Shown: piece by piece, positions 2,615-21,405 of the stretch | Numbering within the stretch: position 1 is the first letter of the stretch | Layout of the letters: each line of letters starts with the position of its first letter | NCBI RefSeq assembly: GCF_003334765.1 | Contig: NZ_QOWT01000003.1 | Strand: one strand, 5' to 3' | DNA length: 64,000 nucleotides | Origin: Escherichia coli | GTDB taxonomy: Bacteria; Pseudomonadota; Gammaproteobacteria; Enterobacterales; Enterobacteriaceae | Notes under the pieces: generated by a model | Databases searched by the model: none | Seen by the model: only the letters and a program-made list of their open reading frames with translations | What the model was told of the DNA's origin: nothing | Translations under genes and position numbers: made by a program

Positions 2615-3892
2615 ATGAAAACCAAAGTTGCTGCTATTTATGGCAAGCGGGATGTCCGTCTGCGCGAATTTGAATTGCCCGAAATTACCGATAATGAACT
2701 GTTAGTGAGTGTAATTTCTGACAGCGTCTGTTTATCGACCTGGAAAGCGGCGTTACTCGGTAGTGAACATAAACGCGTACCCGACGATTTAGAAAATCAT
2801 CCGGTCATTACCGGGCATGAATGTGCCGGGGTTATTGTTGAAGTGGGTAAAAATCTCACCGACAAATATAAAAAAGGCCAGCGTTTTGTATTGCAACCGG
2901 CGATGGGGTTACCAAGCGGATATTCAGCGGGCTACAGCTACGAATATTTTGGCGGTAACGCCACCTATATGATTATTCCTGAAATAGCCATTAACCTGGG
3001 CTGCGTATTACCGTATCACGGCTCTTATTTTGCTGCGGCGTCGCTGGCAGAGCCTATGTGCTGCATTATTGGCGCTTATCATGCCAATTATCACACCACG
3101 CAATATGTTTATGAGCATCGCATGGGCGTTAAACCTGGCGGCAATATTGCGCTGCTGGCATGTGCTGGCCCGATGGGCATTGGCGCTATCGATTATGCCA
3201 TTAACGGCGGCATACAACCGTCGCGGGTGGTGGTGGTCGATATCGACGACAAACGCCTGGCCCAGGTACAGAAGCTGCTGCCGGTGGAGCTGGCGGCCAG
3301 TAAAGGCATTGAGCTGGTGTATGTGAATACCAAAGGGATGAGCGATCCGGTACAGAAGCTGCGGGCGCTGACAGGAGATGTCGGGTTCGATGACATTTTT
3401 GTTTATGCGGCGGTGCCTGCTGTCGTTGAGATGGCTGACGAATTACTGGCGGAAGATGGCTGCCTGAACTTCTTTGCCGGGCCGACGGATAAAAACTTCA
3501 AAGTGCCGTTTAATTTCTACAACGTCCATTACAACAGCACGCACGTCGTCGGTACATCCGGCGGTTCAACGGACGACATGAAAGAGGCGATTACCCTTAG
3601 CGCCACGGGACAGTTACAGCCGTCGTTTATGGTGACCCATATTGGTGGCCTGGATGCGGTGCCAGAAACCGTGCTCAATCTGCCGGATATCCCAGGCGGT
3701 AAAAAACTCATTTATAACGGCGTGACCATGCCGCTCACTGCCATTGCCGATTTTGCCGAAAAAGGCAAAACCGATCCGCTGTTTAAAGAGCTGGCGCGGC
3801 TGGTTGAGGAAACGCACGGCATCTGGAATGAGCAGGCCGAGAAATATCTGCTGGCGCAATTTGGCGTTGATATCGGGGAGGCCGCACAATGA
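2615..3892 (+). CDS. yggP: Zn-dependent medium-chain dehydrogenase/reductase (polyol dehydrogenase-like)
   Basis: 425 aa ORF with MDR/alcohol dehydrogenase motifs (GHECAG..., Rossmann GxGxxG region); 4-bp stop/start overlap with next gene. Confidence 0.85.
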   Translation: MKTKVAAIYGKRDVRLREFELPEITDNELLVSVISDSVCLSTWKAALLGSEHKRVPDDLENHPVITGHECAGVIVEVGKNLTDKYKKGQRFVLQPAMGLPSGYSAGYSYEYFGGNATYMIIPEIAINLGCVLPYHGSYFAAASLAEPMCCIIGAYHANYHTTQYVYEHRMGVKPGGNIALLACAGPMGIGAIDYAINGGIQPSRVVVVDIDDKRLAQVQKLLPVELAASKGIELVYVNTKGMSDPVQKLRALTGDVGFDDIFVYAAVPAVVEMADELLAEDGCLNFFAGPTDKNFKVPFNFYNVHYNSTHVVGTSGGSTDDMKEAITLSATGQLQPSFMVTHIGGLDAVPETVLNLPDIPGGKKLIYNGVTMPLTAIADFAEKGKTDPLFKELARLVEETHGIWNEQAEKYLLAQFGVDIGEAAQ

Positions 3893-4854
3893 TGTCCCTG
3901 GCGTGGCCATTATTTCGCGTTACGGAACAGGCAGCGTTGGCTGCCTGGCCGCAAACCGGATGTGGCGACAAAAATAAAATTGATGGCCTGGCGGTCACCG
4001 CGATGCGCCAGGCATTAAACGATGTCGCTTTTCGTGGGCGAGTGGTTATCGGCGAGGGAGAGATTGACCATGCGCCGATGCTGTGGATTGGCGAAGAGGT
4101 GGGCAAAGGCGATGGGCCAGAAGTCGATATCGCGGTTGACCCGATTGAAGGCACGCGGATGGTGGCGATGGGGCAGAGCAATGCGCTGGCGGTGATGGCC
4201 TTCGCCCCACGAGGCAGCCTGCTACACGCGCCCGATATGTATATGAAAAAGCTGGTTGTTAATCGACTGGCGGCGGGCGCGATTGATCTGTCTTTGCCTC
4301 TGGCGGACAACTTGCGTAACGTGGCGCGGGCGTTAGGTAAACCGCTGGACAAGCTGCGCATGGTTACGCTTGATAAACCGCGCCTGAGTGCCGCAATTGA
4401 GGAAGCAACACAGCTGGGCGTGAAGGTTTTTGCCCTGCCGGATGGCGATGTCGCCGCCAGCGTGCTGACCTGCTGGCAGGATAATCCTTACGACGTGATG
4501 TACACCATTGGCGGTGCGCCGGAGGGCGTGATTTCTGCCTGTGCCGTTAAAGCATTAGGCGGGGATATGCAGGCCGAGCTGATTGACTTTTGTCAGGCTA
4601 AAGGGGATTACACGGAAAATCGGCAGATTGCAGAGCAGGAGCGCAAGCGTTGCAAGGCAATGGGCGTTGACGTTAACCGTGTGTATTCGGTCGATGAACT
4701 GGTGAGGGGGAACGATATCCTCTTTAGCGCTACGGGCGTGACGGGCGGCGAGCTGGTGAACGGTATCCAACAGACGGCGAATGGGGTGCGGACGCAGACA
4801 TTACTGATCGGCGGCGCGGACCAAACGTGTAATATAATAGACTCCCTGCATTGA
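3889..4854 (+). CDS. yggF: Class II (GlpX-type) fructose-1,6-bisphosphatase paralog
   Basis: 321 aa ORF, GlpX-family sequence; start ATG overlaps yggP stop (ATGA). Confidence 0.85.
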   Translation: MMSLAWPLFRVTEQAALAAWPQTGCGDKNKIDGLAVTAMRQALNDVAFRGRVVIGEGEIDHAPMLWIGEEVGKGDGPEVDIAVDPIEGTRMVAMGQSNALAVMAFAPRGSLLHAPDMYMKKLVVNRLAAGAIDLSLPLADNLRNVARALGKPLDKLRMVTLDKPRLSAAIEEATQLGVKVFALPDGDVAASVLTCWQDNPYDVMYTIGGAPEGVISACAVKALGGDMQAELIDFCQAKGDYTENRQIAEQERKRCKAMGVDVNRVYSVDELVRGNDILFSATGVTGGELVNGIQQTANGVRTQTLLIGGADQTCNIIDSLH

Positions 4855-6379: not shown

Positions 6380-7399
6380 ATGACCGTACGCGTAGCGATA
6401 AATGGCTTCGGTCGCATCGGGCGTAATGTGGTTCGTGCTTTGTATGAATCCGGACGTCGGGCGGAAATTACCGTGGTGGCAATCAACGAACTGGCGGATG
6501 CTGCGGGCATGGCGCATTTGTTGAAATATGACACCAGCCATGGCCGTTTTGCATGGGAAGTACGACAGGAACGCGATCAACTTTTTGTTGGTGATGACGC
6601 CATCCGCGTATTGCATGAACGTTCACTGCAATCGCTCCCCTGGCGTGAACTTGGCGTTGATGTAGTCCTCGACTGCACCGGCGTATATGGCTCCCGCGAA
6701 CATGGCGAAGCGCATATTGCCGCCGGGGCTAAAAAAGTGCTCTTTTCACATCCTGGCAGTAACGATCTCGATGCGACCGTTGTTTACGGCGTCAATCAGG
6801 ATCAACTTCGTGCGGAACACCGCATCGTTTCTAACGCTTCCTGTACCACGAATTGCATAATTCCCGTCATCAAATTGTTAGATGATGCGTACGGTATTGA
6901 GTCCGGCACTGTGACCACAATTCACTCCGCCATGCACGATCAACAGGTTATTGATGCATACCATCCTGACCTGCGTCGCACCCGGGCAGCCAGCCAGTCG
7001 ATCATTCCGGTCGATACTAAACTGGCCGCCGGTATCACACGATTTTTTCCGCAATTTAACGATCGCTTTGAAGCGATTGCGGTACGTGTGCCAACCATAA
7101 ATGTGACGGCAATCGATTTAAGCGTGACGGTGAAGAAACCTGTAAAAGCCAATGAAGTCAACCTGTTGCTGCAAAAAGCAGCACAAGGTGCATTTCATGG
7201 TATAGTTGACTATACGGAATTGCCGTTGGTCTCTGTAGATTTTAACCACGATCCGCATAGTGCCATTGTCGATGGTACTCAAACCCGGGTCAGTGGCGCA
7301 CACCTGATCAAAACGTTGGTCTGGTGCGATAACGAATGGGGCTTTGCTAACCGAATGCTCGACACGACGTTAGCTATGGCTACTGTTGCTTTCAGGTAA
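6380..7399 (+). CDS. epd: D-erythrose-4-phosphate dehydrogenase
   Basis: [20 protein letters not shown]... GAPDH-family N-terminus. The track ORF starts upstream at 6296, but the conserved start is the ATG at 6380. Confidence 0.9.
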
Positions 7400-19424: not shown

Positions 19425-20318
19425 TTAATCCTGACGAAGGACTTTGTGACCATAATCGAGTAACGCATCAGTGACTTTACGCATCATGCGGCTTTCAGGA
19501 GCAAAGCGGTGCCAGTAGAGCATCCGTCGTTGAAATAGCCCAGGCGTTAAGTCAATCAGTTCACCGCTGGCCAGCTCTTTCTCGATTTGCAGGTGCGGGA
19601 TCATACAGCAGGTGGTGCCCTGGCGAGCAAGTTGTACGAACGCTTCTGAAGAATTAACGATATGGCAGGGCACGCTGCCTGGAGGCAGATCGAAGTTTTG
19701 CTGCAAAAAGGCCTGGTGCATATCGTCAAGATGGTCAAACGCGACCACTGGCGCTTTCAGTAATGCCGAACGCGTTACGCCGTTAGGGAAATATTTTTCG
19801 GCAAAGGGTTTTGAGCTGACGAACAGATAGTCGAGCGCACCAAGTTTATCGACAAGACAACTCGGCAGCGCCTGATGTTGAATACTCACCGCGCCGACCA
19901 CTTCGCCGCGGCGCAGACGTTCCTGAGTGCGGGTTTCATCTTCTACCTGCAAGTTGAGGCGGATAGGCGAATCAGCCAACACAGGAGCCAGTGCAGGAAG
20001 CAACCACGTCGCCAGACTGTCGGCGTTGACCGCCAGTGAAAGCAGCAGCGGAGTCGAACCGGTTTGTTCATCGCCCAGCCACTCTTCTTCCAGCAACTCC
20101 ACCTGGCGCAGCAGTGCCAGCAGTTTTTGCCCTTGTTCCGTCGGGCGCGGCGGTACGGTACGCACCAACAGCGGCTGCCCGAACATATTTTCCAGTTGCT
20201 TAATGCGCTGTGAGACGGCTGATTGTGTAATGCACAGCTTTTGTGCCGCGCGCTCAAATCCTCGTTCACGTATCACCGCATCCAGTGCCTGTAATGTTCT
20301 GTAGTCCGGGCGTTTCAT
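19425..20318 (-). CDS. argP: LysR-family regulator ArgP (IciA)
   Basis: 297 aa starting [43 protein letters not shown]...; the track ORF has an upstream extension. Confidence 0.9.
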
Positions 20319-20459
20319 TGCTGTTGTCTGCTCCTGGTAAATGCTTTTTCCTGCACTATGACACAATTTTGTGTCAGGTTGCATATACCGAAGCCGTCGG
20401 CGGGTAACATTTGTATCCGTGGTTAAAAGCGCAGCTTAAAAGATCAGGGATTTGCGCTA

Positions 20460-20690
20460 ATGCATTTCGCTCAGCGAGTTCGCGCCCTGGTTGTGTTGAA
20501 TGGCGTGGCGTTATTGCCTCAATTTGCCTGTAAACAGGGGCTTGCGAACGGTGAACTGGTGCGCCTGTTTGCACCGTGGAGCGGCATACCCAGACCGTTG
20601 TATGCTTTATTTGCGGGGCGAAAGGGGATGCCTGCCATTGCGCGATATTTTATGGATGAGTTAACCACGCGGCTTGCCAACGGGGTCTGA
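20460..20690 (+). pseudogene. yqfE: Remnant of a LysR-family regulator (C-terminal fragment only)
   Basis: 76-aa ORF resembling only the extreme C-terminus of a LysR effector domain, with no HTH; corresponds to the known yqfE fragment between argP and rpiA. Confidence 0.55.
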
Positions 20691-20745
20691 ATCGCTTTTT
20701 TTGTATATAATGCGTGTGAAATTTCATACCACAGGCGAAACGATC

Positions 20746-21405
20746 ATGACGCAGGATGAATTGAAAAAAGCAGTAGGATGGGCGGCACTTCAGTATGTTC
20801 AGCCCGGCACCATTGTTGGTGTAGGTACAGGTTCCACCGCCGCACACTTTATTGACGCGCTCGGTACAATGAAAGGCCAGATTGAAGGGGCCGTTTCCAG
20901 TTCAGATGCTTCCACTGAAAAACTGAAAAGCCTCGGCATTCACGTTTTTGATCTCAACGAAGTCGACAGCCTTGGCATCTACGTTGATGGCGCAGATGAA
21001 ATCAACGGCCACATGCAAATGATCAAAGGCGGCGGCGCGGCGCTGACCCGTGAAAAAATCATTGCTTCGGTTGCAGAAAAATTTATCTGTATTGCAGACG
21101 CTTCCAAGCAGGTTGATATTCTGGGTAAATTCCCGCTGCCAGTAGAAGTTATCCCGATGGCACGTAGTGCAGTGGCGCGTCAGCTGGTGAAACTGGGCGG
21201 TCGTCCGGAATACCGTCAGGGCGTGGTGACCGATAATGGCAACGTGATCCTCGACGTCCACGGCATGGAAATCCTTGACCCGATAGCGATGGAAAACGCC
21301 ATAAATGCGATTCCTGGCGTGGTGACTGTTGGCTTGTTTGCTAACCGTGGCGCGGACGTTGCGCTGATTGGCACACCTGACGGTGTCAAAACCATTGTGA
21401 AATGA
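20746..21405 (+). CDS. rpiA: Ribose-5-phosphate isomerase A
   Basis: [31 protein letters not shown]..., 219 aa. Confidence 0.95.

Follow-up and report, generated by a model that had tools for sequence, protein, structure and literature searches.

What is the 76-codon open reading frame (ORF) that lies between argP and rpiA in Escherichia coli: a small gene in its own right, or what is left of a larger one? We examined this question in a window of E. coli DNA, by which we mean the whole stretch of 64,000 nucleotides analyzed here (contig NZ_QOWT01000003.1). The locus is the scpA-argP-yqfE-rpiA-serA segment of K-12-type E. coli. yqfE appears in the ORF list as a frame running from ATG to TGA; it starts 141 bp from the start codon of the divergent argP (20318, minus strand) and ends 55 bp before the ATG of rpiA (20746). 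The argP-rpiA region (about 427-428 bp) is 100% identical in several complete E. coli genomes, and some match to it was found in all 5,426 of the 5,426 complete genomes searched. Compared with yqfE of K-12 (b2915), the sequence is the same (100% over 428 bp to K-12-like genomes) and so are the neighbors, argP and rpiA; we saw no difference.

Annotations of this ORF disagree. RefSeq/PGAP calls it a coding sequence, WP_000545308.1, a "LysR substrate-binding domain-containing protein", and elsewhere names it "hypothetical protein" or "type 2 periplasmic-binding domain-containing protein", so that thousands of E. coli genomes list it as protein-coding under three product names. The name yqfE is backed by a JGI source ("uncharacterized protein yqfE") and by published gene lists, and the K-12 annotation presumably lists b2915 as a LysR-family pseudogene fragment. 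That yqfE is a pseudogene remnant is already known. Our additions are the parent gene, the coordinates of the junction, the chimeric start of the ORF, population frequencies, an independent second loss and the continuing erosion of the remnant.

A Pfam search of the yqfE product returned a single match, to LysR_substrate (PF03466), covering model positions 151-208 of 209 and residues 15-72 of the protein (i-E 7e-7). This bears out the first-pass annotation, which had described the ORF as resembling only the extreme C-terminus of a LysR-type regulator. NCBIfam gave weak matches, far under the cut-offs, to the last 60 or so positions of LysR-type equivalogs (AaeR, PRK14997, YafC). In a search of the 76-residue sequence against 5.8 billion proteins, the only matches were short Escherichia/Shigella fragments of 43-110 aa and one 54-aa "partial" record labeled Enterobacter cloacae complex (P0022), the sole match from outside Escherichia/Shigella in this word-indexed search. 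An exhaustive phmmer search with yqfE found no close full-length relative; the best hit (P0069) was 54% identical. The parent was traced through an odd 92-aa variant (P0019) with additional upstream LysR-like sequence. On its contig, argP and the fragment are separated by about 2.7 kb more, and this additional DNA has Flavodoxin_2 and LysR_substrate matches. On the contig of one assembly (L002, GCA_046507405.1), scpA, argP, serA and the genes of this additional DNA are all split into several short ORFs; such fragments, P0019 included, are typical of long-read indel errors, not of real pseudogenes.

The additional DNA is a four-gene island of 3 kb. At least 80% of it is present at the locus in 233 of the 5,426 complete E. 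coli genomes, and the first 704 bp of its LysR gene, which are absent from K-12, are present there in 248 (about 4.6%). Strains 2014C-3075 and TUM20902 have intact copies of all four genes, with products of 441, 86, 209 and 298 aa (Table 1). The island is thus a presence/absence polymorphism of E. coli, a redox/stress module kept in about 4.6% of strains. The regulator has an HTH_1 domain and a complete LysR_substrate domain, and the azoreductase-like operon diverges from it at a distance of 100 bp. Its last 63 residues are identical to yqfE residues 14-76 (WP_022646093.1, WP_000568123.1 and WP_024189814.1 are intact E. coli versions); both frames end at the same stop codon with rpiA downstream, and both score best against PRK14997, YafC and AaeR. 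In contrast to the intact protein of 298 aa, with its HTH_1 domain and divergent operon, the window keeps only 21% of the regulator. The intact parent belongs to an unnamed LysR subfamily, because its scores against these three families lie far under the curated cut-offs (170 versus 380 bits).

With the parent in hand, we asked what of a LysR regulator yqfE retains. No HTH_1 (PF00126) match was found on yqfE with Pfam, and the two-lobed LysR_substrate domain (about 209 positions) is incomplete, with only positions 151-208 present, equivalent to parent residues 236-298. The divergent target and the shared promoter are absent as well: deletion has taken the promoter region, and of the target only 26 codons remain. 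Because it lacks a helix-turn-helix and has only about a quarter of the effector-binding domain, yqfE cannot act as a LysR regulator. The divergent arrangement in intact islands suggests that the lost LysR protein regulated the adjoining operon. An engineered strain, DGF-298, is without yqfE, argP and neighboring genes (PMC10652928).

Since argP and yqfE are adjacent and both of the LysR family, the first-pass annotation had proposed an ancient duplication as one origin of the fragment, and a partial copy of the neighboring argP would be a simple account of it. The intact parent, now identified, speaks against this account: its identity to ArgP is no more than 28%, over 36 residues, and ArgP family models rank 19th or lower for it in NCBIfam. 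In tblastn searches, ArgP matches the region with an E-value of 0.018 over 19 residues, versus 2e-44 for the true parent. On the low identity and these E-values we rejected a local duplication of argP, to which we assign almost no probability. The other origin that had been offered, a decay event, held up, with an intact LysR gene at the exact position in 248 of the 5,426 E. coli genomes and in related species.

Outside E. coli, an island occupies this site in three other Escherichia: Escherichia whittamii, Escherichia sp. E1V33 and Escherichia sp. MOD1-EC7003. A Pseudocitrobacter metagenome-assembled genome (MAG) has a smaller version between argP and rpiA, with a LysR protein 72% identical; an azoreductase match was not found in that MAG island. 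Citrobacter portucalensis has a two-gene form, argP-azoreductase-LysR-rpiA (L017 4274-5897), with a LysR protein 67% identical, and in Salmonella enterica all four genes of the module (reductase, DUF1471, azoreductase and divergent LysR; LysR 70% identical) lie together at a different chromosomal position. Relatives with the intact gene at the same position, which had been suggested as a check, were thus found both within E. coli (2014C-3075, TUM20902) and beyond it. Because the island occupies the same site in other Escherichia, in the Pseudocitrobacter MAG and in C. portucalensis, the gene is ancestral between argP and rpiA. By this comparison, the module is a conserved Enterobacteriaceae unit that was at argP-rpiA before E. 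coli diversified, and the K-12 state derives from it by deletion. The Salmonella module (L015/L016 2594-5915) adjoins a DUF554 gene and a gene of the ornithine/lysine-decarboxylase family.

Several copies of the island are themselves damaged. The reductase gene is split by frameshift in strains A16 and Res13 (L003 1713-3037, L004) and internally deleted in E. whittamii, E1V33 and MOD1-EC7003 (L008 4383-4933, L009 3931-4941, L011 4642-5130). In MOD1-EC7003 the LysR gene is broken as well, and only half of the DUF1471 gene is left. Across Escherichia, the module is thus being lost piece by piece.

We aligned the window with island-bearing alleles, and the resulting anatomy of the scar is given in Table 1. 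Reading from the argP side, window positions 20200-20374 correspond to L003 1524-1698 at 99%, comprising the 5' end of argP and 56 bp upstream of it. Positions 20440-20497 correspond to L003 3406-3463, inside the azoreductase gene, and the match extends over 20420-20497 against another allele; DNA identity of this remnant is 82-96% depending on the allele (88-96% to L003, L008 and L009), with Escherichia sp. E1V33 the closest. Positions 20498-20800 correspond to L003 4810-5112 at 99%, that is, LysR codons 236-298, the 55-bp spacer and rpiA (all by BLAST). The distance from argP to rpiA is 427 bp here versus 3,416 bp in island strains, a net loss of 2,989 bp made up of a deletion of about 1.35 kb, from azoreductase codon 181 or so to LysR codon 235, and one of about 1.65 kb that removed the reductase and DUF1471 genes.

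Table 1. Features of the argP-rpiA interval in the window and of the intact four-gene island of other E. coli strains
Feature	Position	Strand	Evidence or remark
argP (iciA), intact LysR-type regulator, left border of the scar	19425..20318	-	ORF call; RefSeq "DNA-binding transcriptional regulator ArgP" at the identical locus
argP-proximal upstream DNA, common to deleted and undeleted alleles	20319..20374		99% identical to L003 1643-1698; 0 segregating sites in 9 K-12-type strains
About 45 bp at the left junction	20375..20418		highest diversity of the region, pi 0.052 (9 strains)
Azoreductase-like 3' remnant, codons 182-207 of 209	20419..20497	-	tblastn 81% identity, E 8e-13, at 20496..20419
yqfE, chimeric 76-codon ORF across the deletion junction 20497|20498	20460..20690	+	ORF call, BLAST, tblastn
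LysR 3' remnant, codons 236-298 and stop	20498..20690	+	99% DNA identity to L003 4810-5002; tblastn E 2e-44
45-bp segment within the LysR remnant, missing in about 30% of genomes	20520..20564		search of 5,426 genomes
rpiA-proximal upstream DNA with TATAAT at 20706..20711	20691..20745	+	identical in deleted and undeleted alleles; 1 segregating site in 9 strains
rpiA, right border of the scar	20746..21405	+	ORF call and RefSeq annotation
Ferredoxin/ferric-reductase family protein, 441 aa	island, after argP (-)	-	2014C-3075, TUM20902
DUF1471 protein, 86 aa	island, second gene	-	nearest BhsA/YhcN (NCBIfam)
FMN-dependent NADH-azoreductase-like protein, 209 aa	island, third gene	-	nearest FMN-dependent NADH-azoreductase models, under cut-off (NCBIfam)
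LysR-family regulator, 298 aa, divergent from the azoreductase	island, before rpiA (+)	+	stop codon common with yqfE

A tblastn search of full-length LysR proteins against 20319-20745 had been proposed as a way to reveal additional degraded LysR frames. We ran tblastn with the four island proteins, and it recovered LysR residues 236-298 on the plus strand and, on the other strand, azoreductase residues 182-207. In no frame of 20319-20745 did it find anything for the helix-turn-helix, LysR residues 1-228, the DUF1471 protein or the reductase. The search thus yielded an azoreductase tail in place of further LysR frames.

This second remnant changes how the ORF itself is read. From its ATG (20460) through codon 13, yqfE reads as the reverse complement of the azoreductase-like gene's 3' end, in agreement with a Pfam match that begins at residue 15. 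yqfE is a chimera made at the junction 20497|20498, because its ATG and first 13 codons sit in the wrong-strand azoreductase remnant. The earlier description of the ORF as a LysR fragment consequently stands for its last 63 codons (20498..20690) and fails for its first 13, which are not LysR-derived. No convincing microhomology was found at the K-12 junction.

Taking these findings together, we propose the following sequence of events. The E. coli ancestor carried the four-gene module between argP and rpiA, with a LysR-type regulator on the plus strand. The operon divergent from it had genes for three products: an FMN NADH-azoreductase-like protein, a periplasmic protein of the DUF1471 (BhsA/YhcN-like) type and a membrane flavoprotein resembling ferric/ferredoxin reductases. 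In the ancestry of most E. coli, K-12 included, deletions totaling about 3 kb removed most of the module: one of about 1.35 kb extended from azoreductase codon 181 or so, across the promoter region between the two genes, as far as LysR codon 235; a second, of about 1.65 kb, took the reductase and DUF1471 genes. The outcome is a fusion in which the 63 final LysR codons follow antisense DNA of the final 26 or so azoreductase codons. This antisense stretch happens to provide an in-frame ATG and thus a 76-codon ORF. Erosion of the remnant continues in natural populations.

We consider it very probable (about 0.93) that yqfE is the non-functional deletion scar of a lost LysR regulator. Intact orthologous genes exist, the junction can be placed at 20497|20498, the missing domains can be named and further erosion is seen. 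As in other pseudogenes, the native start, the promoter and essential domains have been lost, and an intact orthologue lies at the same chromosomal position in close relatives. That the product has no function follows less directly, and we infer it from this combination.

About 45 bp at the left junction are harder to place. By eye, 20375-20419 is suggestive of the 3' end of the reductase gene; we left the segment unassigned, as local alignment of the segment against the island gave scores no better than those of shuffled sequences. The stretch (20375..20418) may be a ferric/ferredoxin-reductase 3' end that has diverged too far, or filler DNA.

We next considered how the scar varies among strains. 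The 45-bp segment at 20520-20564 is present in 3,807 of the 5,426 genomes, 248 of them island-bearing, which leaves about 3,560 with a K-12-like remnant. It is missing from the other 1,619 (about 30%), so that at least 15 of the 63 LysR codons are gone; F5505-C1 and PSS-15 are examples. The yqfE ATG has become ATT in F5505-C1 and in E. coli E09, and the latter has two further deletions. Strain WB61 (L012 2394-2825) carries an independent, single island deletion of 2,976 bp with other end points, in which about 45 bp of the reductase 3' end are joined to LysR codons 210 or so to 298; at this junction, where the assembly has an N, the two BLAST segments have about 8 bp in common. Because the WB61 deletion is independent and has different end points, the island was lost more than once.

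Single-nucleotide changes give a less uniform picture. In nine K-12-type strains, the LysR tail has 2, 2 and 10 segregating sites at codon positions 1, 2 and 3, a third-position bias that on its face looks like purifying selection. Four strains encode the identical 76-aa product, WP_000545308.1: in three of them the 428-bp region has 97.4-97.9% identity to the query, and in the fourth 100%. In the alignment, 8 of the 14 variable LysR-tail sites have variants that also occur in intact island alleles, which fits recombination importing variants filtered earlier, in the intact gene. Changes private to the remnant comprise 4 synonymous versus 3 non-synonymous sites (Pro to Leu via two changes; Tyr to His), numbers that are compatible with neutrality in this small sample of nine strains. 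We rate constraint on the remnant as absent by indels; its SNPs are biased to third positions, which variants shared with intact alleles explain only in part (9 strains). Third-position diversity (pi) in the same strains is 0.058 for the LysR remnant (20498-20690), versus 0.025 for argP and 0.009 for rpiA. Because many remnant variants are common to intact island alleles, this high diversity suggests old alleles that have been kept or exchanged by recombination.

The third-position excess bears on whether the ORF encodes a conserved, independent small protein, for example a LysR C-terminal peptide that disturbs the oligomerization of other LysR proteins. About two thirds of E. coli genomes keep the frame open, an AGGGA stretch lies 9 nt upstream of its ATG, and PGAP still annotates it as a coding sequence. 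Yet the frame takes its ATG and first 13 codons from the antisense strand of another gene, by way of the deletion junction; about 30% of genomes have lost at least 15 codons; the start codon is mutated in some strains; and most of the third-position variants are common with intact alleles. The protein clusters, moreover, hold many truncated lengths, from 43 to 110 aa, and there are no size-matched homologues beyond Escherichia/Shigella save the 54-aa "partial" P0022 with its Enterobacter cloacae complex label. On this evidence a functional small protein is very improbable. Hardly more credible is the broader idea that the chimeric ORF or scar DNA was co-opted in K-12-type strains, whether as a small protein or as regulatory DNA or RNA upstream of rpiA or argP. 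We favor the deletion scar, for which a pseudogene flag is warranted.

A different role could be sought in the DNA itself: the coding function may be dead and the remnant retained as cis-regulatory sequence, either for rpiA (as upstream promoter elements) or for argP. The first-pass annotation had placed the event inside the argP promoter region. What was lost is instead about 3 kb with four genes between argP and rpiA, and the deletions did not touch the proximal promoter DNA, because 56 bp beside argP and 55 bp beside rpiA do not differ between deleted and undeleted alleles. All independent deletions spare the 95 bp or so nearest rpiA and the 56 bp nearest argP, and both stretches are nearly invariant. 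Such a pattern is expected without any regulatory role, as selection would in any case eliminate deletions that extended into rpiA or argP. The TATAAT at 20706..20711, 35 bp before the rpiA ATG, is by its sequence a putative -10 element of rpiA, and an accompanying -35 or UP element would have to overlap the stop codon of LysR. However, in E. coli E09 (L006 about 3810-3937) and MOD1-EC7003 (L011 about 6950-7075) the TATAAT is interrupted by a repeat of about 125 bp (insertion point at window 20709/20710) that moves the whole LysR tail away from rpiA, which argues against an essential upstream role of the tail. Most of the remnant (20375-20650) is, in addition, variable or deleted in many strains. 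A scan of 20100-20900 found no consensus sigma-70 promoter, intrinsic terminator or Rfam family, and the folded RNA of the LysR 3' end showed no terminator. We regard a cis-regulatory function of the remnant as unlikely, although it is the least improbable of the alternatives weighed here, and retain the reading of yqfE as a non-functional scar. Beyond annotation hygiene its importance is small; the locus is ordinary genome decay and an example of a deletion junction that creates a plausible-looking ORF.

Some further observations concern the sequences that border the scar. The repeat inserted in E09 and MOD1-EC7003 regenerates a TATAAT beside rpiA and contains CGCTCACCCCAGTCACTTACTT and GTAAGCTCCTGGGGATTCAC, which we take to be ERIC (IRU) repeat primer sites. 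The rpiA gene was reportedly described by Hove-Jensen and Maigaard in 1993. On the argP side, window positions 20352-20383 hold an inverted repeat, TGCACTATGACACAA / TTGTGTCAGGTTGCA, at a distance of 34-66 bp upstream from the start codon of argP. In K-12-type alleles the repeat has a perfect 8-2-8 palindrome at its core, TGACACAA-TT-TTGTGTCA, but in island alleles the core is imperfect (TTGCGTTG); the repeat could be an operator. An older report of a PhoB-dependent iciA (argP) promoter might have given the spacer a function; we set this aside, as ChIP-seq and RNA-seq show no PhoB binding or regulation at argP (PMC10294691). For the yqfE-argP spacer (20319-20459), Table 2 of another study gives an InvenireSRNA prediction of CsrA binding with a probability of 0.64 (PMC8144298). 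Finally, in the search of complete E. coli genomes, one match to the region fell on a record classed as a plasmid, possibly an F-prime-like element or else a replicon that was assigned wrongly.
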